Counted from the stretch's first letter, positions 28,609-63,022 are shown. The stretch: DNA of 64,000 bases from Gammaproteobacteria bacterium (GCA_050184115.1 JBFXAQ010000013.1:44674-108673); one strand, 5' to 3'. The notes: generated by a model from the sequence alone, not told the origin. A program made the numbers and translations.

Positions 28609-28763
28609 GGGCTGTCCCGCAATCAACTTGCAATTCTCGCTGGTCCTTTTGCCGCGATACGTCGTTGCTCGTCGCTCACACGCCGAGCATGTCATCCGCT
28701 CCTCGCGCCTTGTTTCGCGACAAAGGTCCTGCGCGATTTATCGAACTTGATTGCGGGACAGCA
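28609..28763. repeat. About 155-bp element bounded by perfect 16-bp terminal inverted repeats GCTGTCCCGCAATCAA / TTGATTGCGGGACAGC (repeat family C, copy 1)
   Basis: TIRs at 28612-28627 and 28746-28761. The internal sequence is about 75 % identical to the element at 62879-63022. Confidence 0.6.
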
Positions 28764-28880
28764 CACAAGCGCGCGGAACGATTTCTACGGCGACGGGGTC
28801 GTGCCAACGGGCGCGGCCGCGTCGGAATTCTTGCCGGCCACACCCATCGATGGCCGGCTGCTCAAGGGGAGAACAGTGCA

Positions 28881-30707
28881 ATGAGTCAGGTCAGAAGCGA
28901 AGCCGGGGCGGTCGACGCCCTCGATCCGTCGGTGCTGGGATTCGATCCGGCGGAGGTTCGCCGCAAGTACGCCGAGGAGCGCGAGAAGCGCCTGCGGCCG
29001 GACGCCGGCGACCAGTTCGTCGAGGTCGTCGGTGAGAACGCCCATTACGAGGACGATCCCTACGTCGAACCGGGTTTCACCCGCGCAGCCATCCACGAGG
29101 ACATCGACGTCGCCATCCTCGGCGGCGGTTTCGGCGGGCTGCTCGCCGCGGCACGGCTGAAGGAAGCCGGCGTGACGAACGTCCGCATCATCGAGAAGGC
29201 CGGCGACTTCGGCGGCACCTGGTACTGGAACCGCTACCCCGGCGCGCAATGCGACATCGAGTCCTACATCTACCTGCCGCTGCTCGACGAGACCGGCTAC
29301 GTGCCGAAGGAGAAGTATTCCTTCCAGCCGGAGATCTTCGAACATGCCCAGCGCGTCGGCCGGTTCTACGATCTCTACCCGCGCGCCTGCTTCCAGACCC
29401 AGGTGAAAGACGCCCGCTGGTCGGACGAGGACGGCCGCTGGACGGTGACGACGGATCGCGATGACGTCTTCCGCGCCCGCTTTCTCGTCATGTCGAGCGG
29501 GCCGCTCAACCGGCCGCGGCTGCCCGGCATTCCCGGGCTGAACACGTTCAAGGGCCATGCATTCCATACCAGCCGCTGGGACTACGACTACACAGGCGGC
29601 AGTTCGGACGGCGTCCTCGACAAGCTCGGCGACAAGCGCGTCGCCATCATCGGCACCGGCGCGACCGCGGTACAGGCGGTGCCGCGCGTGGCCAGGTCGG
29701 CGCAGAAGCTCTACGTGTTCCAACGCACGCCATCCTTTGTCGACGAGCGCTGGAACCGGCCGACCGACCCAGCGTGGGCGAAATCACTGAAACCCGGCTG
29801 GCAGGCCGAACGCAACGAGAATTTCTGCACGATCCTGGCCGGTCTGCCGGTCGACGAAGACATGGTCGCCGACAAGTGGACCGACTTCTTCCGCCTCACC
29901 TACGAGATTCTCGCCTCGCATATGGGCGAGGTGTCCGACGAGCGCATGAAGCTGATCTCCGAAGTGGCCGATTACAAGAAGGGCAACGACGTGCGCGATC
30001 GCGTTGCGCGCACGGTCAGCGATCCGCAAACGGCCGAAGCGCTCAAACCCTGGTTCGGCCAGTGGTGCAAGCGGCCGCTGTTCAACGACGAGTACCTGCC
30101 GTGCTTCAACCAGCCAAACGTCGAACTGGTCGACACCCATGGCCAGGGTGTCGAGCGCATCACCGAGAACGGCGTGGTGGTCGACGGCGTCGAGTACGAA
30201 GTCGACTGCATCGTTTTCGCCACCGGCTTCGAGGTCAGCACGGCCTACACGCGCCGTTCAGAGTGTGAGGTCTACGGCCGCGACGGCGTGACCCTGACCG
30301 ACTACTGGGCCGACGGCATGAAGACCTTCCATGGTTTCCTGAGCCAGGGCTTTCCGAACTGCTTCCACATGGGCCTCACCCAGACCGGGCTCGCCTTCAA
30401 CTTCACTTACTCGTTGGGCGGCCAGGCGCGCCACATCGCCTACCTCGTCAAGCAGGTCTTCGACCGCGATGCCAAGTCGATCGAACCGACCGCGAAGGCC
30501 GAGGCCGACTGGGTGAAGCTCGTCACCGGGCCGAGCCCGATGCGCGACTACCAGGCGACCTGCACGCCCGGTTACTACAACCAGGAGGGTAAGAACGAGG
30601 GCCAGGGCTTCCTCGACAACCTCTACCCGGAAGGCGCGGTGCCGTTCTTCAGGTTGTTGAAGGCGTGGCGCGAGCAGGGGACCCTCGACGGCATCGACCT
30701 GCGCTGA
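28881..30707 (+). CDS. Baeyer-Villiger monooxygenase with N-terminal extension (HAPMO/CPDMO-like type I BVMO)
   Basis: GGGFGG Rossmann. FKGHAFHTSRW fingerprint. GTGATA second site. Start at MSQVRSEAG after AAGGGGAGAA. Confidence 0.9.
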   Translation: MSQVRSEAGAVDALDPSVLGFDPAEVRRKYAEEREKRLRPDAGDQFVEVVGENAHYEDDPYVEPGFTRAAIHEDIDVAILGGGFGGLLAAARLKEAGVTNVRIIEKAGDFGGTWYWNRYPGAQCDIESYIYLPLLDETGYVPKEKYSFQPEIFEHAQRVGRFYDLYPRACFQTQVKDARWSDEDGRWTVTTDRDDVFRARFLVMSSGPLNRPRLPGIPGLNTFKGHAFHTSRWDYDYTGGSSDGVLDKLGDKRVAIIGTGATAVQAVPRVARSAQKLYVFQRTPSFVDERWNRPTDPAWAKSLKPGWQAERNENFCTILAGLPVDEDMVADKWTDFFRLTYEILASHMGEVSDERMKLISEVADYKKGNDVRDRVARTVSDPQTAEALKPWFGQWCKRPLFNDEYLPCFNQPNVELVDTHGQGVERITENGVVVDGVEYEVDCIVFATGFEVSTAYTRRSECEVYGRDGVTLTDYWADGMKTFHGFLSQGFPNCFHMGLTQTGLAFNFTYSLGGQARHIAYLVKQVFDRDAKSIEPTAKAEADWVKLVTGPSPMRDYQATCTPGYYNQEGKNEGQGFLDNLYPEGAVPFFRLLKAWREQGTLDGIDLR

Positions 30708-30804
30708 GACCGCGCGTGGTGCCGGGCCTGGCGTCCGGCACCGCCGTTCCCGATCGCGTTCGGTGACAGTTTCCTTTTTGCGGCCCTGATGTTCCTGCCT
30801 TTCC

Positions 30805-30861
30805 GGGACAGACCACGGTTTGCGGACCACGGCGAGGCAACGCAAACCGTGGTCCGTCCCC
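30805..30861. repeat. MITE/REP-like element, family A copy 1: GGGACAGACCACGGTTTGCG ... CGCAAACCGTGGTCCGTCCCC
   Basis: 20-bp terminal inverted repeats (1 mismatch) with a 16-bp spacer. Lies between the BVMO and the benE-like gene. Confidence 0.6.
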
Positions 30862-30905
30862 GAATGAGAAGCTGTCCGTCACCGATTCTCCGATAAGCTT
30901 CCCGC

Positions 30906-32132
30906 ATGAGCCTCGAACGTCCCTCGGCGCCGCCGCCGGGTCTCCATGACATCGTCGCCGCTGCCGATCGGCACATCCTCGCCAATGCCCTGGTCGGTTT
31001 CCTGTTCGCGGCGACGGGGCCACTGGCCATCCTCATCGCCATCGGTACCGGCGGGGGACTCACCAGCGACGACATCGCGAGCTGGGTGTTCGGCTCCTAT
31101 GGCCTCACCGGGGTCATCACCATCGCGCTGAGCTGGTTGTGGCGCATGCCGCTGCCCATCGCCTGGACCATTCCCGGTGCCGTCCTGCTGATCCCCGCCT
31201 TCGGTCACCTGGGCTTCGCCGAGATCGTTGGCGCCACCCTGGTCTCCGGCGTGTTGATGACGGTGCTGGGGATCACCGGCTGGGTCGGTTGGCTCATGGC
31301 GCGTATCCCGATGCCCGTCGTCATGGGCATGGTGGCCGGGGTGTTCCTGCCGTTCGGCCTCGGCATCATCAAGGCATTCGAGGCCGAACCCGTGGTCGCC
31401 ACGGTTACCACGGTGGTATTCGTCGCACTGGCACGGGTCGCGCGCCTCGGACGCATCGTCCCGCCCGTGCTCGGCGCGCTGGCGGCAGGGTTCGTGCTGA
31501 TCTGGGCGACCGGTCGCTTCGAGGTCGGCGCGCTGGCCGGGGAGGTGTTGGTGAGGCCGCACTTCTACACTCCCCAATTCACACTGGAAGCGCTGATCGA
31601 GCTGGTTGTGCCGCTCGCGCTCACCGTGATCACCATCCAGAACGCGCAGGGCATTTCGATCCTGCGCATGGCGGGCTTTCCGCCGCCCACCAACCTACTA
31701 ACCGTCGCGTGTGGCCTCGGTACGTTGGCCGTGGGTGTCGTCGGCTCGGTACCGGCCTGTGTCACCGGCCCCTCCAACGCGATGATCAACGCCTCCGGAG
31801 CGCGCGACGATCGCTACGTGGGCGGCATGGCCTTCGGTGCGCTCATGCTGATGCTGGGGCTGTTCTCGCCGCTCGCGATCAGCTTCGCCCTTGCCCTGCC
31901 CAAGGCCTTCGTCGCGCTGCTCGGTGGGCTCGCCATGCTCCGCGTACTCGAATCCGCCTTCCTCGCAGCCTTCGGCGGCGGCTTCAGCTTTGGCGCGCTG
32001 GTGGCCTTCCTGGTGACCGTGGCCGATATCACCCTCTTCAACGTCGGCGCCGCTTTCTGGGGCCTGGTGTTCGGGTTTGCCACGGCCTGGGTGTTCGAGC
32101 GCAAGGACTTCGCGGTACCACGTTCACCGTAG
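30906..32132 (+). CDS. BenE-family (benzoate/H+ symporter-like) membrane transporter
   Basis: About 12 TM segments and family-typical glycine-rich helices. 408 aa. Confidence 0.75.
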   Translation: MSLERPSAPPPGLHDIVAAADRHILANALVGFLFAATGPLAILIAIGTGGGLTSDDIASWVFGSYGLTGVITIALSWLWRMPLPIAWTIPGAVLLIPAFGHLGFAEIVGATLVSGVLMTVLGITGWVGWLMARIPMPVVMGMVAGVFLPFGLGIIKAFEAEPVVATVTTVVFVALARVARLGRIVPPVLGALAAGFVLIWATGRFEVGALAGEVLVRPHFYTPQFTLEALIELVVPLALTVITIQNAQGISILRMAGFPPPTNLLTVACGLGTLAVGVVGSVPACVTGPSNAMINASGARDDRYVGGMAFGALMLMLGLFSPLAISFALALPKAFVALLGGLAMLRVLESAFLAAFGGGFSFGALVAFLVTVADITLFNVGAAFWGLVFGFATAWVFERKDFAVPRSP

Positions 32133-32143
32133 CCCCGTTCAAC

Positions 32144-33469
32144 TCATGCCATGTGAACCTGGCACCTCGAACCACGATGCCGGCCTCGAGCCAGCCTGCT
32201 CACCGGCCACATCGCCGACCCGAGCAGTGCCAGCGAAGGTGGTATGGGAACGGGTTCTGCCGTGACGGCCAGGATGCCACTGGTTGCAGTTGTCGTGAAA
32301 TCGAAATGCAGGCCCGCAATATCAGGAAACTGGATGGTGTCGAAAGCGCCCGTGATGGCTTGGGCCAACAGTATCGTGAAGACGTCGCCGGGAGCGGGCG
32401 TGTAGCCGTGGAGAAGAGAAACATCGAGAGTGCCATCGAGATTCAGGACATTCTCGACGTCGAGCACCGTGAACTCCCCGTCGTCTGCGCCGCTCAACCC
32501 GATGCGCACGGTGGCGGTCTCCAGAATGTCGAGATCTCCGGCGACATCGAACCCGCCGGTGTAATAGGTCGAGTCGCCAACCTGGAACTCTCCTGCCACG
32601 GTCACGTGACCGACCGCCGTTGCCGAGTCTCCGTGCAGGCGTGCGAACCGGTCGACGAAGATCTCGTCCGCAAGCAATTGGGCGCCGGGGCCAAGGTAGA
32701 TATTGTGAAACGCGAAGTCGTCCAGGGGTTGGTTGGACTCGAATCGAAACAGCGTTCCCGCGTCGAGTAATGAGGCGGGCTCGGTGACACGGATTTCGAC
32801 GAAGCGATCCGCGTCCGCGTTGACGACCAAGGCCGGGACGCTCATCTGTCCACCGTAGCTGATCGAAAGCGAATCGTTGCTCAGGTTGAATTGCCCGGAG
32901 CCACTGAACTGACCGTCATAGTCGATGTTCAGGAAAAGGCTGCTATCCATCGAGCCGTCGTTGACGATCGTGCCGTAGGTCAGACGGATAGCCGAGTCGT
33001 TGTCGATCGTTCCGCTGTTGGTGAGTGCGCGGTCGCCGGAAATTAGGACGTATCCCGGTGGGTGAAAGATCAACTCGCCGGCGTTCTCCAGGTGGCCGGA
33101 GTCGATCACGACGTTTCCGTAGTTGTCGACCAAACCATGATTTACCAGGGTTTGCCCAGACCGGATCTTGATGGCACCGTGATTGGTCAACGTACCTTGG
33201 TTGATGACGCGCCCGTTCCGTATCGTGAGCTCGCCGTGAGTATTGATTCCGTCATTGAGGATGGTGACGGTGTCGGCGGCCGAAATCGTCCAGTTGGTGT
33301 CGATGAAAGTCGGTTGATCGATGACGAAGTCCGTCGCGATGGCGGTATGCGTTACAAGCAGCGCAACGCTCGTGACGGCGGATGGCCACCACGCCGGGCG
33401 CTCGTGTCGGCGCGGCCTAGCAGTATCGCGAAGAGCTTTGGACGACGTAATGCCGGTCCGCTGGCGCAT
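32144..33469 (-). CDS. Secreted repeat protein with a PEP-CTERM sorting signal
   Basis: N-terminal signal. Body of degenerate beta-helix-like repeats (INTHGEL / INQGTL / VNHGLV / IDNDSA ...). C-terminus ...TAEPVPIPPSLALLGSAMWPVSRLARGRHRG = P-x-P, hydrophobic helix, Arg-rich tail, a divergent VPIP variant of the PEP motif. Confidence 0.55.
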   Translation of the reverse strand: MRQRTGITSSKALRDTARPRRHERPAWWPSAVTSVALLVTHTAIATDFVIDQPTFIDTNWTISAADTVTILNDGINTHGELTIRNGRVINQGTLTNHGAIKIRSGQTLVNHGLVDNYGNVVIDSGHLENAGELIFHPPGYVLISGDRALTNSGTIDNDSAIRLTYGTIVNDGSMDSSLFLNIDYDGQFSGSGQFNLSNDSLSISYGGQMSVPALVVNADADRFVEIRVTEPASLLDAGTLFRFESNQPLDDFAFHNIYLGPGAQLLADEIFVDRFARLHGDSATAVGHVTVAGEFQVGDSTYYTGGFDVAGDLDILETATVRIGLSGADDGEFTVLDVENVLNLDGTLDVSLLHGYTPAPGDVFTILLAQAITGAFDTIQFPDIAGLHFDFTTTATSGILAVTAEPVPIPPSLALLGSAMWPVSRLARGRHRGSRCQVHMA

Positions 33470-33629
33470 CGGTCATTCCACGAATGTGAGGCGGGGCACC
33501 AATCGTATACCGGCGATCGCGCCAGTGGGAATCCGTGTGCGCCGTCGAAACAGCGTATGACCGCAGACTAACAGCCGCTATTCGAGCGGGAGGGGCTGCC
33601 AGGCGGCCGGGTCCGTTTGCGCAATTTGA

Positions 33630-33750
33630 GGACAGACCACGGTTTGCGTAGCAGCGGCATAGCCGGCGAACGAGGGGGGGAGGCCGCTTTACTGAACCGT
33701 CGGCTGGCAAACGGATGAGCCGGCGTGTCGCTAAATCGTGGTCTGTCCCC
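33630..33750. repeat. MITE/REP-like element, family A copy 2: GGACAGACCACGGTTTGCG ... GCTAAATCGTGGTCTGTCCCC
   Basis: 19-21-bp terminal inverted repeats flanking about 80 bp. Lies between the PEP-CTERM gene start and the cupin gene end. Confidence 0.6.
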
Positions 33751-33768
33751 GAATAAATTCCGCAGGCG

Positions 33769-34254
33769 CTATTTCTCGAGGTACTGATCGAACGCCGCGT
33801 CGAAATGACTGCCGTCACCGAGCGGCTGCGCGCGTATGACCACTCCCAGCATGACGGCCGGTTCGTCGCCGATGGCCGACCAGCTGTGCATGACGCCGCG
33901 ATCGACAACGACGTCGCCGGCAGCGAGCTCGACCTCGCCTGCTTCGAGCGCGAGCCGCACCCGACCGGTCAGCACGACCACGTAGTCGAGCGTATCGGTC
34001 TGGTGCCAGGCCGGCGGCGTACCGGGTTGCTGCGTGAACAGCACGCAGAAACTCGACTTCTTGAAGGTGTCGAGGGTGAGGGGCGTGGCGGCTTCGGCAT
34101 TGCCGGCGTTGCTGGGCGGATAGTCGTCGCTCTGCCAGACGATCGCGGGATCGCCGCCACAGGCTGCGATCTGCTCGAGCGCGGCATCGGAAATCACGCA
34201 CGATTTCCCGTTGTCGTCGAGGCCGGTGACTACCCGGCGATTCTTGAAGGTCAT
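33769..34254 (-). CDS. Cupin-domain protein
   Basis: Conserved cupin barrel region (WHQTDTLDYVVVLTGRVRLALEAGEVELAAGDVVVDRGVMHSW). Start at MTFKNRRVV with a GGAGA RBS. Confidence 0.65.
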   Translation of the reverse strand: MTFKNRRVVTGLDDNGKSCVISDAALEQIAACGGDPAIVWQSDDYPPSNAGNAEAATPLTLDTFKKSSFCVLFTQQPGTPPAWHQTDTLDYVVVLTGRVRLALEAGEVELAAGDVVVDRGVMHSWSAIGDEPAVMLGVVIRAQPLGDGSHFDAAFDQYLEK

Positions 34255-34303
34255 GGGCTCATCTCCACTTGCCAATCGAGTCGGCGATACCGACGGGGAA
34301 TCC

Positions 34304-34387
34304 GCGGGAATCCGGGGACAGACCACGATTTATCCGGCCCAGGATTGACCCGGCCGGGGCCGGTGGAATCCGGGGACGAATATCGTG
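34304..34387. repeat. MITE/REP-like element, family A copy 3: GGGGACAGACCACGATTTAT ... GAATATCGTGGTCTGTCCCC
   Basis: 20-bp terminal inverted repeats (2 mismatches) flanking 44 bp. Lies inside the operon between the SDR and cupin genes. Confidence 0.6.
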
Positions 34388-34438
34388 GTCTGTCCCCGAT
34401 TAAAAGACGGGCGGACGTCGGACGCGACTGCGAACTGC

Positions 34439-35242
34439 TCAGGTATCCAACTCGATCGTCGCCAGATCGACCGCGCTGCCGCCGCCGTCGACGACCATCG
34501 TGTGGCCGGTCACCATGGCGGCATCGCTGGACGCCAGGAAGGCGCACACGGCGGCGATCTCTTCGGGCTGCGAGATGCGTCGCAGCGGGATGTGGCGGGT
34601 CGAGCGGGCCAGGGCTTCCTCGACGGTGATGCCGTCGCGCTGGGCGAGGTAGGCGATGGTGCCGTCGGCGAGCGCGGTCTTGGTCCAACCCGGGCACAGC
34701 GCATTCACGCGCACACCTTGTGGGCCGAACTCGCGCGCCAGCCAGCGCGCGAGCCCGACGATGCCGTGCTTGGCCGCGGTATAGCCGAGGCCGCCGACCG
34801 GGCCGGCGAAGAGCCCGGCGGTGGAGGCGATCAGCACCGCCGAGCCCTTGCGCTCGACCAGGTGCGGCATGGCCTCGCTGACCAGGTAGTAGGGGCCACT
34901 CAGGTTCACGTCCAGCCCGCGCAGCCACTTCTTGTCGCCGCGCGCGGTGGGTACGTCGCCGGTCACCGCGCCCTGGGTGGCGATGACGGCGTCGAGGCCG
35001 CCGTAGGTCGCGACGGTCTTGGTCACCACTTCGTTGAGCGCTTCGCGCGAAGTGCCGTCGGCGGGCAGCGCGAGGGCGCCGATGTCGTCAGCGAGCGCCG
35101 TGAGTGCCTCGGCGTTGATGTCGGTCACGGCGAGCTTGACGCCTTCGGCGGCGAAGCGGCGCGCGGTGGCCGAGCCGATGCCGCCAGCGGCGCCGCTGAC
35201 CAGGGCGACCGCGGGCATGGTGCGGCGATAGGGGTCGTTCAT
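34439..35242 (-). CDS. SDR-family oxidoreductase
   Basis: GAAGGIG, NAL, and catalytic S..Y...K (YTAAKHG). Confidence 0.85.
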   Translation of the reverse strand: MNDPYRRTMPAVALVSGAAGGIGSATARRFAAEGVKLAVTDINAEALTALADDIGALALPADGTSREALNEVVTKTVATYGGLDAVIATQGAVTGDVPTARGDKKWLRGLDVNLSGPYYLVSEAMPHLVERKGSAVLIASTAGLFAGPVGGLGYTAAKHGIVGLARWLAREFGPQGVRVNALCPGWTKTALADGTIAYLAQRDGITVEEALARSTRHIPLRRISQPEEIAAVCAFLASSDAAMVTGHTMVVDGGGSAVDLATIELDT

Positions 35243-35279
35243 GGGTTCTGCTCCAGGTGGGGCGGCGTACCGTCGGGCA

Positions 35280-35603: not shown

Positions 35604-35652
35604 GGATGTCTCCTGCAGGCGGTCAGGGTGTTCGGTTGCGTGTTCGACGACG

Positions 35653-46210: not shown

Positions 46211-47779
46211 ATGGGCACGAGCCTCGCCTGGATCACCGATGCCGTCACCGGCCAGGCGCCGGTCGTGGCGGCCGGTTGCCCGGCCCTGGCCTTCGACGAC
46301 CAGCCGCCACTGAGTTATGCCGCACTGCGCGAAGCCGAACTGGCCGCGGCGCGCGCCCTGGCCCGGGCCGGCGTCACGCGCGGCGACCGCGTCGGCCTGC
46401 TGCTGCGCAATTCCATCGACTACGTGGTGTTGTACCTCGCGCTGGCGCGCCTCGGGGCGATCTCGGTACGACTCAATTTCCGCCTCACCGCACCCGAGGT
46501 AGCCTTCATCCTCGGCGACTCGGGGGCGAAGGTGCTGATCTTCGACACCGACTTCGTCGGCAGCGTGGCGCCGGTGCTGGACGAACTCGCCGTCGTCACC
46601 TACGTCGCGCGCGAGGAGAGTGGGCCGGGGCCGGACTGGGCGGTACCGCTCGACGAGTTCCTGGCTGCCGGCGCCGGCCACGAGGTCACGTTCCCGGTGC
46701 TCGGCGCGGACGACGCGGTGACCCTGCTCTACACCTCGGGCACGACCGGAAGCCCCAAGGGCGCGATCTGGACCCATGGCAACACGCTGTGGTTCGCGGC
46801 CATGCAGAGCATGAAATGGGGCATCGACGGCGGTGCGGTCGCCTTCACCCCGGGGCCGCTGTTCCACGCCGGCAGCCTGGAGGTCCTGATCCTGCCGGCG
46901 CTGGTCAACCACGGCGTCGGCGTCACCTTCTCGTCCGGCGGCGTGACCCTCGAACGCCTGCTCGACGTGGCGCGCGCGCAGTCGGCCACCGTGCTGCTGC
47001 TCTACTCCTTCATGGTCTACGACTTCCTGCGCCTGCCCGACCTCGAAACCCGGGTGCCGGCGACGCTCCGGCGCATCATCTGCGGCGGCGACACCCTCAT
47101 GCCCTGGGTCTACGACGTGCTCGCCGAACGCCTGCCGCAGATCGAACTGGTGCAGGTCTACGGCCTGACCGAGGGCGGCGCCATCAGCACCTGTCTCGAC
47201 CACGGCTTCGCCCAGGCGCGCGCCGGCAGCGTCGGCCGGCCACTGCCGCTGTCCGAGGTGAAGATCCTCGACGAGCAGGGCCGGCCGGTGGCGACGGGCG
47301 CGGTCGGCGAGATCCACGTACGCAGCCCGAGCGTGAGTCCGGGCTACTGGCAGCGGCCGGAGGCGAACGCGGAGACCTTCGTCGACGGCTGGTGCCGGAC
47401 CGGCGACCTCGGCAGCGTCGACGCCGACGGCTTCCTCACCCTCGGCGGGCGCGCCAAGGACATGATTCGCAGCGGCGGCGAGAACGTCTACCCGGCCGAG
47501 ATCGAAGCGGTACTGACCAAGGCCCCCGGGGTCGCCGATGCCGCGGTGTTCGCGGTGCCCGACGCGAAGTACAACGAGGTCGGTTGCGCGGTGCTCATCG
47601 CCATCGAAGGCGCGACCCTCGATCTCGACGCGGTGCGCGCCTACTGCGGCGAGCGCCTCGCGCGTTTCAAGATCCCGAAGTACTTCGTCGTCGGCGACAC
47701 CCTGCCGCGTACCGCTTCGGGCAAGGTCAAGAAATTCGAATTGCGCGCGGCCTACGCCGCCATCGGCGACACCGCCTGA
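46211..47779 (+). CDS. AMP-dependent synthetase/ligase (acyl-CoA ligase)
   Basis: YTSGTTGSPKGAIWTH, the QVYGLTEGG motif, the TGDLGSVDADGFLTLGGRAKD hinge, and C-terminal GKVKK. Confidence 0.85.
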   Translation: MGTSLAWITDAVTGQAPVVAAGCPALAFDDQPPLSYAALREAELAAARALARAGVTRGDRVGLLLRNSIDYVVLYLALARLGAISVRLNFRLTAPEVAFILGDSGAKVLIFDTDFVGSVAPVLDELAVVTYVAREESGPGPDWAVPLDEFLAAGAGHEVTFPVLGADDAVTLLYTSGTTGSPKGAIWTHGNTLWFAAMQSMKWGIDGGAVAFTPGPLFHAGSLEVLILPALVNHGVGVTFSSGGVTLERLLDVARAQSATVLLLYSFMVYDFLRLPDLETRVPATLRRIICGGDTLMPWVYDVLAERLPQIELVQVYGLTEGGAISTCLDHGFAQARAGSVGRPLPLSEVKILDEQGRPVATGAVGEIHVRSPSVSPGYWQRPEANAETFVDGWCRTGDLGSVDADGFLTLGGRAKDMIRSGGENVYPAEIEAVLTKAPGVADAAVFAVPDAKYNEVGCAVLIAIEGATLDLDAVRAYCGERLARFKIPKYFVVGDTLPRTASGKVKKFELRAAYAAIGDTA

Positions 47780-49435: not shown

Positions 49436-51432
49436 CGCCAGCGGCCGCCGTCGATACGCCCGCCGGCGTCGCCTGGCAGCCCTCGGCGCGGCACCTTGCC
49501 GAGTCCGGGGTGGCGCGGCTGGTTCGCGCCCTGGGCGTGGACGACTACGATGCCCTGCTCGACATGGCCACCACCGATCCGGCGCGCTACTGGCAGACGG
49601 TCTGCGCGTTCTGCGACATCGCCTGGGACGTCGCGCCGAGCGGTTACGTCGATCTCGCAGGCGGGCGCGAATTCCCGCGCTGGTTCCCGGGCGGGCGCCT
49701 GAACTGGGTCAACACCGTGCTCGCCTGGGGTGAGCGCGCGGCCACCGCGGACGGTATCGCCATCGCGTCCGAAGACGAGCGCGGCGCGGTTGAATCGGTC
49801 ACCTACTCAGAACTCGGTCCGCGCGTGCGGCGCTTCGCCGCGGCGCTCGGTGCGCTCGGTGTCGAGGCCGGCGATCGCGTCGGCCTGTTCATGGAGAACG
49901 GTCTCGACGCCACCGTCGCGCTGCTCGCCATCGCCTACCGCGGTGCCGTCGCCGTGCCGCTGTTCAGCGGCTTCGGCGCCGAGGCCGTGGTCGCGCGCCT
50001 CGGCGCGGCGGAAGCGCGGGTGCTGCTCGCCGCGCCGTCGTTCGAGCGTCGCGGCCGCGCGGTCGAACTCGAAGGCATCGTGCGCGAAGCCTGGACGCAA
50101 TTGCCGGCGCTCGAGCGCGTGGTGTGGAAAGGCGGGCCGGCCGCGGTGCGCGGCGCGCGCGAGCTGGCCTGGGACGCGTTCCTCGCCGCCGGCGCGGGCG
50201 CCGCGGCCGCGCCGGCCAGCGTCGACCCCGACCATCCGTTCCTGCTCATCTACACCTCGGGCACGACCGGCAAGCCCAAGGGCATCGTGCACGTGCACGG
50301 CGGCTTCCCGCTCAAGATCGCCCACGACGCCGTCGTCCATCTCGACATCGGCCCGGGTGATGCCTTCTCCTGGCCGGCCGACATCGGCTGGATCGCCGGC
50401 ACCCTGGTGGCGAGCTGCGCCCTGCTGCGCGGGGCGAAACTGGTGTGCTACACCGGCGCGCCCGACGTGCCCGACTTCTCGCGCATGGCGCGCCTCATCG
50501 AGCGCCACCGCGTCACCCACTACGGCGCCGCGCCGACCCTCATTCGCAGCCTCGCCAGCCACGAGGCCGAAGCACTCGCCGGCGACCGGTCGAGCATCCG
50601 CCTGTTGATGACGGCGGGCGAGGGCATCGATCCCGAGCACTTCGGCTGGTTCCAGCGCCACTTCGGCGCCGGTACCGCGCCGCTCGTCAACTACACCGGC
50701 GGCACCGAGGTGTCCGGCGCGCTGCTCGCCTCGGTGGTGGTGCGGCCGATCGTGGCGAGCGCCTTCAACAGTACCTCGCCCGGGGTCGCGGTCGACGTCG
50801 TCGGGCCGGACGGCGCGCCGCTCACCGATGCCGTCGGTGAACTCGCCGTGCGCGCGCCCTTCGTCGGCATGACACGGTCGTTCTGGCGCGACGACGAGCG
50901 CTATCTCGAGACCTACTGGCAGACCGTTCCGGGCCTCTGGATCCACGGCGACCTCGCGCTGCGCCGCGGCGACGGCCAGCTCTTCCTGCGCGGGCGCTCC
51001 GACGACACCCTCAAGGTCGCCGGCAAGCGCCTCGGCCCGGCCGAGGTCGAGGAAGCCGTGCTCCGGGTCGAGGGCGTGGTCGAGGCCGCCGCCATCGGCG
51101 TGGCCGACCCAGCCAAGGGCGAACGCCTGGTGGTGTTCGTCACCGCCAGCGCCGGCATCGCCGCTGCCGGCGATGCGCTCGCGGCGCGGGTGACCGATGC
51201 CGTCGCGGCGGCCCTCGGCCGCGCCTTCCGCCCGGCCGCCGTGCATGTCGTCACGCAATTGCCCAAGACCCGTAGCGGCAAGATCCTGCGCCGCGTGGTG
51301 CGCAATCTCTACGCCGGCCTGCCGCCCGGCGACCTGTCCTCGCTCGACGACCCGGCCGCGCTCGACGAAGTGCGCCGCGCCGCCGCGCACGTCACTCAGA
51401 TTCCTGCCCAGTCCCAGGGGAGCAAGCCATGA
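49432..51432 (+). CDS. Acetoacetyl-CoA synthetase-like acyl-CoA synthetase (ACS family with N-terminal ACAS_N-like region)
   Basis: 666 aa. AMP-binding motifs YTSGTTGKPKGIVH and YTGGTEV... C-terminal KTRSGKILRR. GTG start overlaps the Rieske stop (GTGA) after GGAGG. Confidence 0.75.
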   Translation: MTPAAAVDTPAGVAWQPSARHLAESGVARLVRALGVDDYDALLDMATTDPARYWQTVCAFCDIAWDVAPSGYVDLAGGREFPRWFPGGRLNWVNTVLAWGERAATADGIAIASEDERGAVESVTYSELGPRVRRFAAALGALGVEAGDRVGLFMENGLDATVALLAIAYRGAVAVPLFSGFGAEAVVARLGAAEARVLLAAPSFERRGRAVELEGIVREAWTQLPALERVVWKGGPAAVRGARELAWDAFLAAGAGAAAAPASVDPDHPFLLIYTSGTTGKPKGIVHVHGGFPLKIAHDAVVHLDIGPGDAFSWPADIGWIAGTLVASCALLRGAKLVCYTGAPDVPDFSRMARLIERHRVTHYGAAPTLIRSLASHEAEALAGDRSSIRLLMTAGEGIDPEHFGWFQRHFGAGTAPLVNYTGGTEVSGALLASVVVRPIVASAFNSTSPGVAVDVVGPDGAPLTDAVGELAVRAPFVGMTRSFWRDDERYLETYWQTVPGLWIHGDLALRRGDGQLFLRGRSDDTLKVAGKRLGPAEVEEAVLRVEGVVEAAAIGVADPAKGERLVVFVTASAGIAAAGDALAARVTDAVAAALGRAFRPAAVHVVTQLPKTRSGKILRRVVRNLYAGLPPGDLSSLDDPAALDEVRRAAAHVTQIPAQSQGSKP

Positions 51433-56291: not shown

Positions 56292-58258
56292 GCACACGTC
56301 CCGACTTCCAGGCCGAGTTCGACGAGCGGCGTCCGGCGCGCCTGCGCGACTGGAGCGAAGCGCAGTTCGAGCGCTTCTACCACTGCGATCGCTTCACCGC
56401 GATGGTGCTGACCAACCGCTTCCGCTACACCGTCGATCACATGAGCACGGGGCTCATGTTCAGCGCCTTCTCGCCGATCATCCGCGATTGGTACGACTTC
56501 GCCATCACCATCTCCGGCCCGCCCGACATGGACTACCCGATGACGGCGGTGTCGAACTCGCTGGTGGTGTTCCTCGGCACGATGGAGGACGGCGTGCGCA
56601 ACGTCGTCGAGGAATACGGTCTCGAACGCCTGAAGCCCGGCGACGTGCTGCTGTGCAACGACCCCTACCGCAGCGGCAACCACGTCAACGACGCCCTGTT
56701 CATCCGCCCGGTGTTCCACGACGGCCGCGTCATCGCCTTCGTCAACGCTCGCGCCCACCAGCTCGACATGGGCGGCATCGCCGCTGGCGGCTTCAGCGGG
56801 TCGAAGGCGAACATCTACGAGAACGGCCTGGTCATCGGCCCGACGCTGCTCTTCGAGCACGACCGCCCGGTGCGTTCCACCTTCAGCCTGGTGTTCGACA
56901 ACACCCGTTTCCCGGGGCTCCTCGCACCCGACTTCATGACCATGGCCGAGCAGCTCAAGCTCGGCGAGCGCCTGGTCGCCGAGAGCATCGCGCGCTACGG
57001 CGAGGCGGCCTACCGTGGCGCCGTGCGCTACGTCTGCGACGCCTCGGCCGAGGCCATGGGCGACGCCATCGAGCGCATTCCGGACGGCGACTACGCCTTC
57101 GAAGAACCGCTCGATGCCGACGGCGCCGGCGACGACGAACCGCTGGTCGTGCGCGGCACCCTCTACAAGCGTGGGCGGCGCGTCGAACTCGACTGCAGCG
57201 GCTCCTCGCGCCAGGCGCGCACCTGCATCAATGCCGGCGCGCTCGACGCCAAGACCGCCGTCGGCGTCGCGCTCAAGTTCCTCGTCGACCGCGAAACGCC
57301 GTTCACCTCCGGTTCCTACCGGCCCATCGACGTCGTCGTGCCGCCGGGCACGCTGGTCTCCGCCATGCCGCCTGACGGCGCCATCATGATCTACTGGGAG
57401 GTCACCCAGGCGCTCCTGTCCGGCATCCTGCGCGAGGTCGGCCGCGCCATCGGCGACGAGGCCTTCGGCGGCGACATGGGCGGCATCTCGGTGCACAACG
57501 CGCACGGCATGAACGACGACGGCACGCCGTGGGCCAACATCGGTCTGGTCGGCGGCGAACACGGCCCGTGGGGTGCCGACCGTCATCACGATGCTGACAG
57601 CTACGTCGTCACCTACATGATCGACGGCCTCGACCCGGCGGCCGAGGGCATGGAGCAGGATTCTCCCGTGCTCCTGCTGCGCAAGGAGTTCGTCACCGAC
57701 AGCGCCGGCCCGGGCTACAACCGCGGCGGTGCCGCGGTGATCAAGGACGCCCACTGGGAGACCGCGGGCACGCATTACTCGGTGCCACTGCGTTTCAAGC
57801 AGCCGGCCGGATTCGGCGCGGCCGGTGGTGGGGCAGGTGCCACCGGCGGTTGCTGGTTGTTCGAGCCGGACGACCCGGGCCGCGCCAACGCCGGCAGCAT
57901 CATTGGCCTGGATGCCGGCGCCTACGCGCACTCGACCCCCATCGCGGGGGTCGTCGACCCGCAGACGCGGGCACTCGACCCCGCGGGTGAGTACGCCTAC
58001 TACGGCCGCCAGCCGACCTGGCACACGCGCCCGGGCGCCTATTCGCGCTATATCACCAACGGTGGCGGCGGCTGGGGCGATCCGTTCACACGCGAGCCCG
58101 AGCGCGTGCTGGCCGATGTGCGCAACGAGTACGTCAGCATCGCCGGCGCGGCGCGGGACTACGGTGTGGTGGTGATCGGCGATCCGGCCAACGACCCGGA
58201 AGGCCTGCGTATCGACGCGCCAGCAACCGCGGAACTGCGTGCCGCCCGCCGCGGCTGA
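56288..58258 (+). CDS. Hydantoinase B / oxoprolinase-family subunit (HyuB-like)
   Basis: 656 aa collinear with the Hydantoinase_B family. ATG overlaps the hyuA-like stop (ATGA). Confidence 0.9.
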   Translation: MSTRPDFQAEFDERRPARLRDWSEAQFERFYHCDRFTAMVLTNRFRYTVDHMSTGLMFSAFSPIIRDWYDFAITISGPPDMDYPMTAVSNSLVVFLGTMEDGVRNVVEEYGLERLKPGDVLLCNDPYRSGNHVNDALFIRPVFHDGRVIAFVNARAHQLDMGGIAAGGFSGSKANIYENGLVIGPTLLFEHDRPVRSTFSLVFDNTRFPGLLAPDFMTMAEQLKLGERLVAESIARYGEAAYRGAVRYVCDASAEAMGDAIERIPDGDYAFEEPLDADGAGDDEPLVVRGTLYKRGRRVELDCSGSSRQARTCINAGALDAKTAVGVALKFLVDRETPFTSGSYRPIDVVVPPGTLVSAMPPDGAIMIYWEVTQALLSGILREVGRAIGDEAFGGDMGGISVHNAHGMNDDGTPWANIGLVGGEHGPWGADRHHDADSYVVTYMIDGLDPAAEGMEQDSPVLLLRKEFVTDSAGPGYNRGGAAVIKDAHWETAGTHYSVPLRFKQPAGFGAAGGGAGATGGCWLFEPDDPGRANAGSIIGLDAGAYAHSTPIAGVVDPQTRALDPAGEYAYYGRQPTWHTRPGAYSRYITNGGGGWGDPFTREPERVLADVRNEYVSIAGAARDYGVVVIGDPANDPEGLRIDAPATAELRAARRG

Positions 58259-58262
58259 GTCT

Positions 58263-59762
58263 TCAGCCGGCGTCGAGGCTGGCGCGGTTCAAGCCGCTGG
58301 CCGGATCGTAATCGAGGCGCACGCGACGACCGATGACGTTGTCGCCAGTCAGCGCGGCGAAGGTGGCGTCGTTCTCGTCGCTGTTGGCGACGAAGCGCAG
58401 GCCTTCGTCGGTGCGGCCGTAGACGATGCCGCGCGACGGTGATTGGTCGCGCGCGTAGACCACTGTCCAGGTTTCGATGACGCCGCCGCCGCTGGCCTGC
58501 TCGGTACGCGCGACCGGGCCGTCGCCGGCGAGCGGCGCGGCGGCATCGTCGAGATCGTGCCGGCCGAGATCGGTGTCGCCGGGGGTGTCGGCGTAGATGC
58601 CGACGGCGTGCTTGTGCATGAACCAACCCAAGGCCGTCGCCATGGCGCTGTGCAGACGACCGGCGGCGATGTTCTCCGCCAGGCTGGCGATGCCGTGCAG
58701 GGCGTAGTTGCTGCCCGGTCCGCCGAAGTAGCCGAGACCGCCGGTCTGGGTCAGCGGGCGCGGGTCGTCGTCGCCAATGCCGAGCTCGCCGCGGGCGACG
58801 TTGACCGCGCAGGGGAAGCAACTGTAGAGATCGAAACCCTCGAGCTCGGATACGCGCAGGCCGGCGCGGGCCTGGGCCTTGGCAGCCGCCTGCGCCAGCG
58901 GTGGGCTGCGCGTGTAGTCGGCCTTGTCGACGAGGAAGCGCTGGCGATCCTTGGCGAAGCCGCCGCCGCGGAAATACACCGCGCGGCCGGCACCGTCGCG
59001 CAGGGAGCGTGCGATCTCGTCGGTCGTCATCAGTACCGCCGCGCCGAGATCGGCCATCACCAGCGAGACCATGCGCTTGGTGTAGGGGAAGCAGATGGGG
59101 CGGTTGTCGGGTGCGGGCGTGGTGATCGCCGCGGCGCCCAGCGGCGCACGAGTCCAGGCGTTGGGATGACCGGCGGCGACCTCGCTGAAGCGCGCGAGTT
59201 GGCCTCCGACCTTGGCCAGCCAGGCGTCGAGCGGCAGGCCGGAGCGCGCCCACAGCGCGTTCTCGAACAGTGGGAAACCATGGATGGGCAGGGTCACGCC
59301 ATGGCGCTGTTCGTAGTCGTCGCTGCCGACCGCGTCCTCGGCGTCGTAGTCCGCGGGGATGCCCTGGATGAGGGCGGCCTCGCCACGCACGTCGGTGTCG
59401 GCGCGCGGGTAGAAGGTCTCCGCGCCGCAGATGAGCACCGCGCGGGCCTCGCCGCGGGCGAGCATGCCGGCGGCCTGGTTGACGAAGTTCTGCGGCACCT
59501 CGCCGCCGATCCCGGAGATCCTCACGTGGGCCGGGTCGATGCCGAGGCGGCGCGCGATCTCCGTGCCCGGCTCGACGAGCATGCGGCTCTGTGTGCGGAC
59601 CACCAGCAGGGCGTCGACCAGCGGCCAGATGCCGGCCCCGGCGACGGCACCGGCATCGCGCGCGGCGCGTTCCATCATGTCGATCGGATCGAGGTAAGGT
59701 GGCGTGGCGGACTTCGGCTGCGTGACCTGGCCCCAGCCGACGATGACGACGTGTTCTGGCAT
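58263..59762 (-). CDS. Thiolase-like (SCP2-thiolase-type) protein fused to a C-terminal DUF35/OB-fold domain
   Basis: N-terminal thiolase fold with Cys in the LICGAETF region. C-terminal OB-fold-like segment (GGGVIETWTVVYARD...GIVYGRTDEGLRFVAN). RBS GAGGAG. Confidence 0.7.
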   Translation of the reverse strand: MPEHVVIVGWGQVTQPKSATPPYLDPIDMMERAARDAGAVAGAGIWPLVDALLVVRTQSRMLVEPGTEIARRLGIDPAHVRISGIGGEVPQNFVNQAAGMLARGEARAVLICGAETFYPRADTDVRGEAALIQGIPADYDAEDAVGSDDYEQRHGVTLPIHGFPLFENALWARSGLPLDAWLAKVGGQLARFSEVAAGHPNAWTRAPLGAAAITTPAPDNRPICFPYTKRMVSLVMADLGAAVLMTTDEIARSLRDGAGRAVYFRGGGFAKDRQRFLVDKADYTRSPPLAQAAAKAQARAGLRVSELEGFDLYSCFPCAVNVARGELGIGDDDPRPLTQTGGLGYFGGPGSNYALHGIASLAENIAAGRLHSAMATALGWFMHKHAVGIYADTPGDTDLGRHDLDDAAAPLAGDGPVARTEQASGGGVIETWTVVYARDQSPSRGIVYGRTDEGLRFVANSDENDATFAALTGDNVIGRRVRLDYDPASGLNRASLDAG

Positions 59763-59923
59763 GACTTTCTCCTCACCACGGCAAGCCGCGACTATAGCGC
59801 AAGCGGTTCTGTCTCAGGCCGTAAGGCCGACACTTGCGGCGTGTAAATCGCCTGCACAGAATACCGCCAGCACGTGACGGCCGTGGTCGCATTCTGTACC
59901 ACGCACACGCGGGGGGAGTGGCG

Positions 59924-60865
59924 ATGGCCATGTTCGTTCAGGACGCAACGACGACGACCGGCGACGCGCGCATCGCGCACTTTTCCTATGCGTCGTGGCT
60001 CTCGCTGTTCGCCGGCGTGTGGCTGCTCATCGTCGACCAGCGCCTGCAGACGGTGCTCACCACAGTGGCCGGCCGTGGCGCTGCACATCCGCTGTCGAGT
60101 CCGAGCCGGCTACTGCCACTGCTGTGCGTTGCGTATGTCTGCTTCCGGCTCGTGCGACCCTTTCCCTTCCTGGCGCCGCGCGCCGCTGAGCCATCGGGCG
60201 GCCTCTACGTTCTCGGTGTGGCCCTGACGAGGGCAGCCGCGCTCTCCGCGTTGGCCTGCGCTACCTGGATCGTCGCCCTGCCTTACCTTGTCGCGGGATT
60301 GGCCATGATGCAGATCGCTCTGCCGATTCTCGTGTTAGGCGGTTTTCTGTGCGTCGAAGCGGCAGTGCGGCGGGCACCCGCGGCGCAGCGTCGGAACGCG
60401 CGCTACCTCGACGGCGGACTCGTGGCGGCGCTGTTCATGACGACCGCGCTCAGTGTCTGGTTCGTGCTGCATCTGGCTCCACGCTCCGGCGTGGCTTTGC
60501 TGGTGTTGAGGACCTTGAGCAATCCGACTGACGCGATCCTCGTGATCATCGGTACCGGCATGGCATTCGGATTCCTATGGACCTTGCTCGAGCGACCGCG
60601 ACGCGTGCTGCGACGGTACGCGTTATGGCGCGCGATCGTCTGCGGATGCTGGGTTCCTGCGATTTACGCGTTCGCGGTCCTGGGCGTCGGCGCTCACCAC
60701 CGGCAGCTCGATTCGAGCTTCGGTTCCGATAGGCTGTGGCGTGGGTTGTACGAGGCGCTTGGTGGCGGTACACACGTGCCGACGCCCGTTCTCATTGCCT
60801 GGGGCGTCGTGACGTTTGCTGCCTTGCTTGTTCATCTGGCGCAGCGGCGCGAGGTTCGGTCATGA
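59924..60865 (+). CDS. Hypothetical polytopic membrane protein (about 8 TM helices)
   Basis: Hydrophobic helices throughout. Start at MAMFVQ after GGGGGGAGTGG. No recognisable domain. Confidence 0.5.
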   Translation: MAMFVQDATTTTGDARIAHFSYASWLSLFAGVWLLIVDQRLQTVLTTVAGRGAAHPLSSPSRLLPLLCVAYVCFRLVRPFPFLAPRAAEPSGGLYVLGVALTRAAALSALACATWIVALPYLVAGLAMMQIALPILVLGGFLCVEAAVRRAPAAQRRNARYLDGGLVAALFMTTALSVWFVLHLAPRSGVALLVLRTLSNPTDAILVIIGTGMAFGFLWTLLERPRRVLRRYALWRAIVCGCWVPAIYAFAVLGVGAHHRQLDSSFGSDRLWRGLYEALGGGTHVPTPVLIAWGVVTFAALLVHLAQRREVRS

Positions 60866-62847
60866 GCGGACGTGTATTGCTCATTGCGATCTGTGCGTTG
60901 GTGTTCGTGGCCGCCATCGAGGCCACCACCGGGCGCGCTGCGTTGACGCGGAGTTTTCCCAACGGCGTAGCGCTGCAGGATTATGTCCGCGACGAGGGCG
61001 AAACAAGGGCGACCTGCCAGGCGGTCAACGAGTTCGAGATAGCCGCGCTGCCATTGAGAGGCCGCGTCGTACACGTCAGTGGCCGTGCGCAAGAGGTCCA
61101 CAAGGCCGAGATCAAGCGAATCATCGAACAGCGCTTTCGCGACAGCGAGGTCTACGTCGATGACGTTCAACAGCGTGCTATCCGGGGCATCGTGTCGCAT
61201 TACATGCGAGGTGGCGTCCCGGTGGAAGCCGTCACCGTGGAAGTCGAGGAGCGTGGGCTCAATCCGCCGCGCAAACTCGCGCGCCAGCGTACGCTCAGCA
61301 CCTACCATCAGGTGACTATCCGGGCTGCCGGCAGTGCAGTGACGGCGCGTTGGCAAGGCGTCCTCGGCAACACATGTGGCGAACTGCACGAGGTCACCCC
61401 GTTCGCAAAGTTCATCGAAGCTGCCGCAGCGGCAGCAGGTGACACCAGTCCACCGAATTTTGCTGAGCTTTACGGCGCCTCACTGGAAGCGGAACTGGTC
61501 ACCATCGATGCCGACTACGTGGCGCGCCGCGATGAATTCTCCGCGCCTCTGGTCGCCGATGACTGCCTCGCCTACATCAGTGACAGCGAGAAGCGTCGCG
61601 CGAAACGGCTGACGGTGCCGACGACGGGCGGGACCGTCACGCTCGAACCTGTCGCGACCGAGCCAGTACCGCCCGCGGTGGTGTGCAGTGCGGGGCGTAC
61701 GGTGCTCGTCGTGCGGAACCTCGACCGGATCGCTGTCGTCGCTGTGGACCGCGATGGCAGCTTGCTGGGTGCGACCGAGTTGAAAGTGGCGAACGTCGGT
61801 CTGCGCGAGGCATTCAGGGACGCGCAGGTCGATGGCGACCGGGTCTCGGTGGCGCTGGTAGCCTATGCCGTCAACGACGACGGTCGTCTCGTCGCCACGA
61901 GCACGCACGGCTTGAATGTCTACCTCCCGCCGCCAGTCGCGGCGGACCCGGGCGAAGTGCCCAAGGCCCAGCGCGCCTGCCTGGCAGCGCCGTTGCCCGA
62001 ACTCGCTCGAATTCCCCTCCACGAGTTCCAGCTGAACGCGCTGGGCGGCAGCGGCTTGGTCCGACCCGCCGACCACCGTCCGATATCGCTGCGGTACCTG
62101 GTGGTCGACGCGCTCTACGAGGACCTGGCGTTGTCGATCCGCGGCCTGGAATCGCCCAGCGTGTTCTACGTCACCGTCGTGCCGGGTACCAGGCTGCGCT
62201 ATATCGAAGTCGTTGGTCGTGGTGAGCAGATCGTGGTGGTCGACGATGCAGAGACGATCGTGAACGTGGCAACGGCGCCAGACTGCCCGAGCTACATCGA
62301 CGCCGAGGGCCGCGCGCGGGATTCTCGTGTCGAGCGCGTGAGTGCCGCCGCGCAGCGCAGTCCACGCAAGGTGATGCGCGTGGTGGGTGCAACGCGTAGT
62401 GACCCCGCTGCGGACTGGCAGGCAGTCGATTCGGCCCTGCAAAAGCTCGGCTACACCCGCTTTCGGGACAGCGCTGACTATTTTTCGACGTTGGCGCGCA
62501 GTGGGCTTCTGGTCGAGCCGAGCGGCAAGGATTTTGTCAGACTGCGGCAGCTGTATTATGAGGGTCTGCCCACGCGTGAAAAGCTGTGGTCGTGGTTCAG
62601 CGCGCGCCCGGGCCTCGACTTGCGGGCACACTTCCGGGTGGACCAGATGCGCCTGGTCAAGGCGCCGCTGGCGTTGCCCGACCTCGGCAAGTCCTTCGTC
62701 CCGCTCTCCGAGCCGGTGTTCATCATCGAGGCCGGGGTGCCGCTCCCCGACGGCGATGTCTACCGGTACATGGTCCTGGATGTCACTACGCTGAGTTGCA
62801 AGGGGCAGGTCGACCGCTGCCCCTGGCGGGGTGGTGCACGCGATTGA
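60862..62847 (+). CDS. Hypothetical 661-aa protein with N-terminal signal anchor, no recognisable domain
   Basis: ATG overlaps the upstream stop (ATGA). N-terminal MSGRVLLIAICALVFVAAIEA. Coding-like composition throughout. Confidence 0.5.
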   Translation: MSGRVLLIAICALVFVAAIEATTGRAALTRSFPNGVALQDYVRDEGETRATCQAVNEFEIAALPLRGRVVHVSGRAQEVHKAEIKRIIEQRFRDSEVYVDDVQQRAIRGIVSHYMRGGVPVEAVTVEVEERGLNPPRKLARQRTLSTYHQVTIRAAGSAVTARWQGVLGNTCGELHEVTPFAKFIEAAAAAAGDTSPPNFAELYGASLEAELVTIDADYVARRDEFSAPLVADDCLAYISDSEKRRAKRLTVPTTGGTVTLEPVATEPVPPAVVCSAGRTVLVVRNLDRIAVVAVDRDGSLLGATELKVANVGLREAFRDAQVDGDRVSVALVAYAVNDDGRLVATSTHGLNVYLPPPVAADPGEVPKAQRACLAAPLPELARIPLHEFQLNALGGSGLVRPADHRPISLRYLVVDALYEDLALSIRGLESPSVFYVTVVPGTRLRYIEVVGRGEQIVVVDDAETIVNVATAPDCPSYIDAEGRARDSRVERVSAAAQRSPRKVMRVVGATRSDPAADWQAVDSALQKLGYTRFRDSADYFSTLARSGLLVEPSGKDFVRLRQLYYEGLPTREKLWSWFSARPGLDLRAHFRVDQMRLVKAPLALPDLGKSFVPLSEPVFIIEAGVPLPDGDVYRYMVLDVTTLSCKGQVDRCPWRGGARD

Positions 62848-62878
62848 GATAGATCGACCATGACTGGCGTTCAGGTCG

Positions 62879-63022
62879 GTGGGCAGCCCGCAATTCTCGC
62901 CGGTACGCTGGTTGCGATATGTCGTCGTTCGTTGCTGGTACGGCGCGCCTGAACAGTGCTCCTCGTGCTTTGTCTCGCGCCAAGTAGGATGCGCGGCTCA
63001 TCGATCTTGCTCGTGAGGCAGG
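62879..63022. repeat. Repeat family C, copy 2 (about 75 % identical to 28609-28763), overlapping the 3' end of the methyltransferase gene
   Basis: Shared blocks CCCGCAAT..TCTCGC, TGCGATAyGTCGTyGTTyG and GCTCCTCGyGCyTTGTyTCGCG, plus an ATCGAaCTTG-like terminus. Confidence 0.55.

Follow-up and report, generated by a model that had tools for sequence, protein, structure and literature searches.

Two copies of a short repeat at gene boundaries

The window analysed here is a 64,000-nucleotide (nt) stretch of DNA from a Gammaproteobacteria bacterium (GCA_050184115.1, JBFXAQ010000013.1:44674-108673), in which a repeat of about 150 bp is present twice. The first copy is located between the gene of an ArsR-rhodanese regulator (27930-28607) and that of a Baeyer-Villiger-type flavin monooxygenase (28881-30707); the second overlaps the 3′ end of a class I S-adenosylmethionine-dependent methyltransferase gene on the minus strand (62998-63867). 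An initial annotation had described this pair, with one copy between the regulator stop and the start of the monooxygenase gene and the other over the last codons and the stop of the methyltransferase gene, and had proposed either a decayed family of miniature transposable elements with inverted repeats (MITEs) or a structured small RNA or terminator module. Both copies and both positions were confirmed, copy 1 directly adjoining the regulator stop codon. We found that the repeat is very probably a non-autonomous MITE of ∼150–160 bp, of which copy 1 is an intact example and copy 2 a relic.

Copy 1 spans 160 bp (28607-28766), with its pyrimidine-tract strand on the plus strand of the window and its better-folding, purine-rich strand on the minus strand. 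It is bounded by 20-nt terminal inverted repeats, GTGGGCTGTCCCGCAATCAA on the left (28607-28626, plus strand) and, as the reverse complement, GTGTGCTGTCCCGCAATCAA on the right (28747-28766, minus strand), with a single mismatch between the arms (28610 versus 28763). The perfect 16-bp inverted repeats that had been reported to frame this copy are indeed present, as the arms GCTGTCCCGCAATCAA and TTGATTGCGGGACAGC, but their coordinates had been 2 nt and 1 nt off and are 28611-28626 and 28747-28762. The left target-site duplication, TA at 28605-28606, forms the first two bases of the regulator TAG stop (28605-28607), and the G of this stop is supplied by copy 1 itself, which begins at that base. 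On the right the flank reads AA (28767-28768), the remnant of a TA duplication of which the A alone is kept.

Copy 2 (∼62879-63026, plus strand) has the same orientation as copy 1. Its terminal repeats and TA flanks have decayed, in line with the degenerate termini noted before, and the flanks now read CG and TC. The 12-bp internal duplication that had been ascribed to copy 1 is the normal architecture of the family; it is copy 2 that has lost ∼11 nt near its left end, between two GCAAT repeats. The two copies are 67–68% identical over 135–152 ungapped nt, less than the ∼75% estimated initially. Their similarity is nevertheless far above chance: blastn within the window gives an E-value of 8e-17, and the local alignment score of 49 compares with 9.2 ± 1.6 for random window segments (maximum 18, n = 1952) and 8.9 ± 1.3 for shuffles. 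The flanks show no similarity between copy 1 and copy 2. A family profile built from ten elements of other genomes, with the window left out, identified copy 1 (E-value 4.6e-28) and copy 2 (3.4e-3), both in the same orientation, as its sole matches in the 64 kb.

A dispersed family of elements without coding capacity

We scanned one genome per species with the pattern TGTCCCGCAAT N103-133 ATTGCGGGACA and obtained at least 120 loci. The core TGTCCCGCAAT is common to all members by construction, since the pattern required it, and the distance of 126–154 nt between repeat cores is a range set by the search pattern as well. Most of the matches listed come from Streptomyces, whose genomes hold several copies each, mostly with the cores 152 nt apart; the others come from Kitasatospora, Nocardioides, other Actinomycetota, several Gammaproteobacteria metagenome-assembled genomes (MAGs), a Polyangia MAG, Leminorella grimontii and Candidatus Abyssobacteria. 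Up to 10 or more copies per genome occur among the matches listed. The terminal repeats are 20–23 nt long with the core CTGTCCCGCAAT. Over its full length copy 1 is 74–76% identical to elements of one Gammaproteobacteria MAG, and a comparison of actinobacterial with gammaproteobacterial interiors gave E-values of ∼0.003–0.01 with the terminal repeats included and no significant match without them, which does not establish deep homology of the interiors.

On plasmids, the Streptomyces subfamily is found at 195–230 places on 89–107 PLSDB records, almost always without an annotated feature, and the window repeat itself has no plasmid match. A search of 5,426 E. coli genomes for Leminorella-type members gave no match, and a literature search on the repeat string and on Streptomyces MITEs returned nothing relevant. 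MITEs as a kind are well known, whereas this particular family appears to be undescribed and unannotated. Partial Leminorella-type matches with 74–77% identity were seen on two enterobacterial plasmids, namely of Citrobacter braakii (H161, NZ_CP136728.1, 89793-89902) and Serratia proteamaculans (H162, NZ_MT039221.1, 272520-272595), one of these matches lying beneath the 3′ end of rfbD. Plasmid pSP01 of Streptomyces sp. PAMC 26508 carries a 34-bp micro-derivative of the element (L126, 3001-3034), which consists of 12 nt of the left terminal repeat and a 22-nt right repeat and is flanked by CTG and CAG.

A coding relic or small open reading frame (ORF) was considered and ruled out: mismatches between copies 1 and 2 show no codon periodicity, no ORF is kept across the copies and an ATG in the apical loop is not conserved. 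Likewise, GGAGG was rejected as a Shine-Dalgarno sequence for a transposase start, as the tract is one side of the helix described below and its spacing to ATG is too long and variable.

Target site and insertion next to stop codons

Across 120 unique listed elements the flank profile reads C-TA, element, TA-G. A TA stands at equal distance on both sides in 85 of the 120, and the inferred target is CTAG in 69 of these 85. Elements at four loci (L016, L067, L076 and L101) are flanked by TG on either side; these direct repeats identify the dinucleotide as a duplication lying outside the inverted repeat. CTAG is found only 0.14 times per kb in the high-GC loci, where 45 of 91 unoccupied CTAG sites (49%) are the stop of a long ORF with high GC at third codon positions. 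Insertions share their TA with the stop of a long ORF in 41 of 113 cases (36%). The rarity of CTAG, together with the fact that about half of these sites are stops, accounts for the association with stop codons without any extra preference, and a special preference was rejected by the comparison of 36% of insertions with 49% of free sites. With respect to the gene at whose stop an element has inserted, both orientations are equally frequent (23:23). Targeting of CTAG in GC-rich genomes leads to landing on stop codons and may rewrite C-termini and 3′ ends of genes.

Several MITE copies have other insertion sequences (ISs) exactly at their TA/TTAG flank or no more than tens of bases away. These are an IS4, an IS701-like (DDE_5), an ISAzo13-family and an IS630-family element, seen at L111 2234-5526 and L040 5006-6679 (Streptomyces sp. 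NBC_01013), at L130 2001-3750 and at L143 1789-2000. MITE ends (CCCTTAG) thus seem to create insertion hot spots.

Four orthologous regulator–monooxygenase loci lack copy 1, with an intergenic region of 93–126 bp versus 273 bp in the window. The regulators of these loci share 90% (L133), 76% (L134) and 75% (L137 and L138) amino acid identity with that of the window, and the family profile found no match in any of the four. In the closest ortholog, L133, the regulator stop TAA occupies the very position at which TA and then the element stand in the window; the break is not precise to the base, as ∼21 further nt also differ. These loci identify copy 1 as an insertion.

At copy 2, homologs of the methyltransferase end in ...RF(V/I/R)KP(R)*, while the window protein continues with ASVLPHEQDR. 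These ten additional C-terminal codons and the stop (62998-63030, minus strand) are read from copy 2. Judged from the alignment, loss of the T of the duplicated TA probably removed the original stop. Copy 2 is also situated at one edge of a 3.2-kb segment (59802-63036) that a related MAG (GCA_024235015.1, L139) lacks; there, 84 bp beyond the methyltransferase gene comes the ortholog of window 58263-59762.

A covarying hairpin whose purine-rich strand carries a tandem-G.A helix

Copy 1 forms a hairpin over its entire length, the z-scores being −5.6 (plus strand) and −7.3 (minus strand) as RNA and −5.8 and −7.7, respectively, as DNA. The fold of copy 2 is no better than that of shuffles (z-scores +0.8 and +1.6). 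The initial annotation had suggested to look for a conserved structure, and a family-wide covarying hairpin was found. The consensus hairpin of 26 non-redundant Streptomyces-type elements comprises 54 pairs and is 95.6% paired, compared with 34–54% in slid controls; 22 pairs have changed on both sides versus 6.9 ± 1.8 in shuffles (none of 500 reached this value). The covariation includes internal helices and is not confined to the terminal repeats, and seven G.U positions are conserved. The gamma subfamily together with copy 1 has 52 pairs, 17 of them with compensatory changes. The purine-rich strand folds better in 71 of 72 Streptomyces-type and 6 of 7 gamma elements. This asymmetry has to be read with caution, as elements were oriented by their pyrimidine motifs, which makes it partly circular, and G-rich strands fold better in general.

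The most distinctive part of the hairpin is a helix in which Watson-Crick pairs alternate with tandem G.A mismatches. In copy 1 its 5′ tract is GCGAGGAG (28699-28706, minus strand; columns 61–68 of alignment A5) and its 3′ tract CGACGAGC (28667-28674, minus strand; columns 93–100), pairing as G-C, C-G, (G.A, A.G), G-C, (G.A, A.G), G-C. Among 11 elements the Watson-Crick pairs 65:96 and 68:93 are split between CG (6) and GC (5), and the G.A positions are fixed. A coupled swap of CTCCTC and CGTCGTC tracts between elements resolves on the purine strand as this tandem-G.A helix. Inversion or recombination was rejected as the origin of the swap: the reverse complement of one type fails to give the other, and base-pair covariation does. 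The corresponding mirror motif X-GA-Y...Y′-GA-X′ is present on the purine strand of 66 of 78 Streptomyces-type and 16 of 29 other elements and on the opposite strand of only one element in each set (1/78 and 1/29). It lies ∼60–66 nt from each element end and occurs in the gamma, Leminorella, Jatrophihabitantaceae and Polyangia types; it is absent from the Nocardioides, Abyssobacteria and L026/L117 types. A G.A helix on one strand in several subfamilies hints at a constraint on a single strand, either RNA or single-stranded DNA.

Neither the window nor 14 loci gave an Rfam match at the gathering score, and E-value mode returned only weak hits to generic long hairpins. No terminator-like site was detected in 28300-29100, the ∼75-bp hairpin of copy 1 has no T-run or U-tract, and no promoter consensus was seen at copy 1.

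Search for a partner transposase

In 0.9 Mb of fetched loci no paired family ends 0.3–4 kb apart enclosed a transposase. Generic searches for inverted repeats and repeats among the loci returned only kilobase-sized IS4 and IS701-like elements that had inserted beside a MITE, and solo terminal-repeat hits on plasmids were truncated copies, the 34-bp micro-derivative, or lay beside an ISAzo13-family IS. No hit came from metagenome contigs, viral contigs or E. coli genomes. IS630 copies in Streptomyces plasmids were located by tblastn with the IS630 N-terminal domain, and the ends seen were CTGAGGTTTTCG and CTGAGATTGAAC, both following TA, as well as CTGAGCTTGTAG and CTGAGTTTGGGG. An IS5-family element at the Streptomyces locus L127 has the ends GACGGTGTCCTACATGG preceded by TAA, which resemble the MITE ends only loosely.

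Interpretation and alternative explanations

Terminal inverted repeats, TA duplications in CTAG, dispersed copies, empty sites and the lack of coding capacity together bear out the MITE family among the readings proposed initially. IS630-family elements duplicate TA (PMC2170065), IS630 itself prefers CTAG according to Tenzen and Ohtsubo (1991) as cited in PMC2170065, and RUP/IS630-Spn1 represents a known MITE of this sort that inserts at TA and is presumed to use an IS630 transposase in trans (PMC2229807). Given the TA/CTAG signature, a transposase of the IS630/Tc1-mariner type is the most likely mover of the element, and we lean slightly towards this assignment. The element would move by cut-and-paste through a DDE transposase supplied in trans, which would bind the terminal repeats and make staggered cuts at TA. 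Insertions would pile up at gene ends since these GC-rich genomes contain very few CTAG sites, about half of which are TAG stops. At copy 1 the regulator stop would have been kept as TA plus the G of the element; at copy 2 the stop would have been lost, extending the methyltransferase by 10 residues. Copy 1 seems competent for transposition; copy 2 is a dead relic. The long hairpin with its one-strand tandem-G.A helix appears to be maintained by compensatory change, and transcription of copy 1 within the regulator–monooxygenase region would put a very stable stem-loop into the RNA.

Several observations weigh against this account. The right TA of copy 1 is imperfect, and only two copies lie within the 64 kb of the window. 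No full-length element with these ends and a transposase gene was found in the loci, plasmids, metagenome and viral contigs and E. coli genomes searched. The five Streptomyces IS630-family copies, which sample few lineages, have ends beginning with CTGAG, unlike the MITE end AGGGCTGTCCCGCAAT. Compensatory evolution of the whole hairpin and strand asymmetry are not required by plain double-stranded cut-and-paste. In addition, TA duplication is not unique to IS630: some elements of the IS5/IS427 group, IS1301 among them, likewise produce it at YTAG. The main alternative mover of such a MITE, which we consider unlikely, is accordingly an IS5-family (IS427/IS1031-group) transposase. The IS5 ends at L127 have the layout 4 nt + GTGTCC + YRCA in common with the MITE ends (GGGCGTGTCCCGCAAT following TA in the Nocardioides type), and the MITE ends occur in none of the IS630 copies inspected. 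However, the L127 element makes a 3-bp TAA duplication and not a 2-bp TA, the apparent resemblance of the ends is short, and the CTAG/TA signature of the family is textbook IS630 behaviour.

A different explanation sees in the ∼150-nt unit first of all a nucleic acid that functions in single-stranded form, be it a structured RNA or a DNA hairpin of the purine-rich strand. Selection would then keep the structure, and mobility would be its means of spread, or the folded strand would be recognised by the mobilising enzyme. The excess of double-sided pair changes in Streptomyces, the compensatory pairs of the gamma subfamily, the better fold and conserved G.U positions of the purine strand and the nearly exclusive occurrence of the mirror motif on that strand in subfamilies of Actinomycetota, Gammaproteobacteria and Polyangia all speak for it, as does the flipping of flanking Watson-Crick pairs while the G.A positions stay. 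However, orientation to the stop-hit gene is even, copy 1 has neither a promoter nor a terminator consensus, Rfam holds no family beyond far sub-threshold generic hairpins, and copy 2 has lost its fold without apparent consequence. The strand asymmetry carries the two caveats given above, some subfamilies lack the G.A motif, and an internal-only Streptomyces profile misses the gamma subfamily. Template-switch repair in quasi-palindromes can moreover produce compensatory changes without selection and so mimic compensation. We judge it improbable, at a level slightly below that of the IS5-type mover, that the module keeps its strand-asymmetric fold (a long stem with an apical hairpin and Watson-Crick pairs alternating with tandem G.A mismatches) across Actinomycetota, Gammaproteobacteria and Polyangia for a function of the folded single strand itself. 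If it did so, recognition of the folded strand by a novel mobilising enzyme would make this a mechanistically new TA-targeting element; alternatively, the family RNA would regulate its transposase or flanking genes. Of the initial proposals, the structured small RNA is not established: the lack of an Rfam family and of a promoter consensus and the lost fold of copy 2 go against it, although the family-wide covariation and the strand-specific G.A helix leave some room for a single-strand function. The terminator finds no support, given the missing U-tract, the missing terminator-like site and the even orientation to the upstream gene. Finally, the two copies might have arisen by local duplication, or might serve both loci as a common cis-regulatory module (operator, attenuator or intrinsic terminator), and not be mobile DNA; both lie at gene boundaries, and copy 1 places a strong hairpin between the regulator and monooxygenase genes. 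This reading is effectively refuted by the spread of the same element over at least 120 unrelated loci in several phyla, by its TA duplications and by the orthologous loci without it; nor is there a U-tract terminator, a promoter-like site or any similarity between the flanks of the two copies. We regard it as having almost no chance of being correct.

Taken as a MITE, the element explains both the 160-bp stem-loop between the regulator and monooxygenase genes and the 10-residue methyltransferase tail, and the two repeats imply no regulatory link between their loci. The family is abundant and ignored by annotation pipelines, and the occurrence of an almost identical repeat core in distant phyla points to a transposase lineage that is widely transferred and has gone unrecognised. 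Should the one-strand G.A helix prove to have a function, this family would offer a tractable example of a structured mobile element. MAG annotation, strain typing and work on the plasticity of Streptomyces genomes would benefit from either outcome.

Other features of the window

Two diverged paralogs of the flavin monooxygenase (26123-27739, minus strand, and 28881-30707, plus strand) flank the ArsR-rhodanese regulator gene in inverted orientation and surface in the repeat search as the inverted-repeat pairs I1–I3 and I8, which are 71–80% complementary. Another inverted pair, I6 (48 nt, 75% complementary; 30818-30865 and 33624-33671), brackets a BenE transporter gene and its neighbour; each arm holds a palindrome-like CGGACCACGG...CCGTGGTCCG that could be an operator. 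Three paralogous AMP-binding (acyl-CoA synthetase-like) genes have motif regions that are 65–72% identical (6333-6756, 46349-46781 and 49837-50302) and account for the repeat families D1 and D3.

The segment 59802-63036, at whose edge copy 2 lies, has a lower GC content (62–66% versus ∼71%) and contains two ORFs, 59834-60865 and 60736-62847, without a match in Pfam, NCBIfam or PADLOC. The larger one (60736-62847) corresponds to a 661-amino acid hypothetical protein at NCBI (AB7Q81_22995), for which only seven distant full-length homologs with 25–32% identity were found among 1.84 billion representatives. Its AlphaFold model is β-rich with a predicted local distance difference test score (pLDDT) of 75.7 and has no significant fold match in the PDB.

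Comparison with known systems

RUP, Correia elements and Stowaway MITEs may be viewed as analogues of this family. Like its members, the pneumococcal repeat unit (RUP) is small (107 bp) and non-coding, has terminal repeats, inserts at TA and occurs in many copies (PMC2229807). The ends of RUP match those of IS630-Spn1, whereas no matching IS was found for the present family, and the two share no sequence similarity; RUP is also confined to one Gram-positive genus, whereas the repeat core described here occurs in several phyla. Correia elements of Neisseria, also called CREE or NEMIS, duplicate TA and are subject to RNase III processing. They resemble our family in their size of 107–155 bp, their terminal repeats, the long stem-loops formed on transcription, their position at gene boundaries and the lack of an identified autonomous partner (PMC2229807). 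Their ends carry promoter elements and an IHF site, neither of which is seen at copy 1, and the sequences are unrelated. We know of no CTAG preference of Correia elements.

IS630 and ISY100 share the TA duplication and the CTAG preference with our family, and their insertions occasionally resemble copy 1 in having TA at one end and a lone A at the other (PMC2170065). They are autonomous elements of 1.0–1.4 kb encoding a transposase with helix-turn-helix and DDE domains, in contrast to the non-coding element of 150–160 bp found here. Imperfectly palindromic, dispersed intergenic repeats that are transcribed as hairpins are also known from Proteobacteria as ERIC/IRU and REP/REPIN sequences. These differ in architecture, and our family has no match in the E. 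coli genomes searched with the Leminorella type. REPs measure ∼35 bp, contain a GTAG motif and rely on RAYT for their movement, which produces no TA duplication. Plant Stowaway MITEs are likewise short inverted-repeat elements with TA duplications and long hairpins that are mobilised by mariner-like transposases in trans; they are eukaryotic and unrelated in sequence to our family. The sub-threshold Rfam hits of the Streptomyces element point to plant hairpin microRNA families that are probably MITE-derived (49 bits versus gathering scores of 168–268), a resemblance that reflects a generic long hairpin only.

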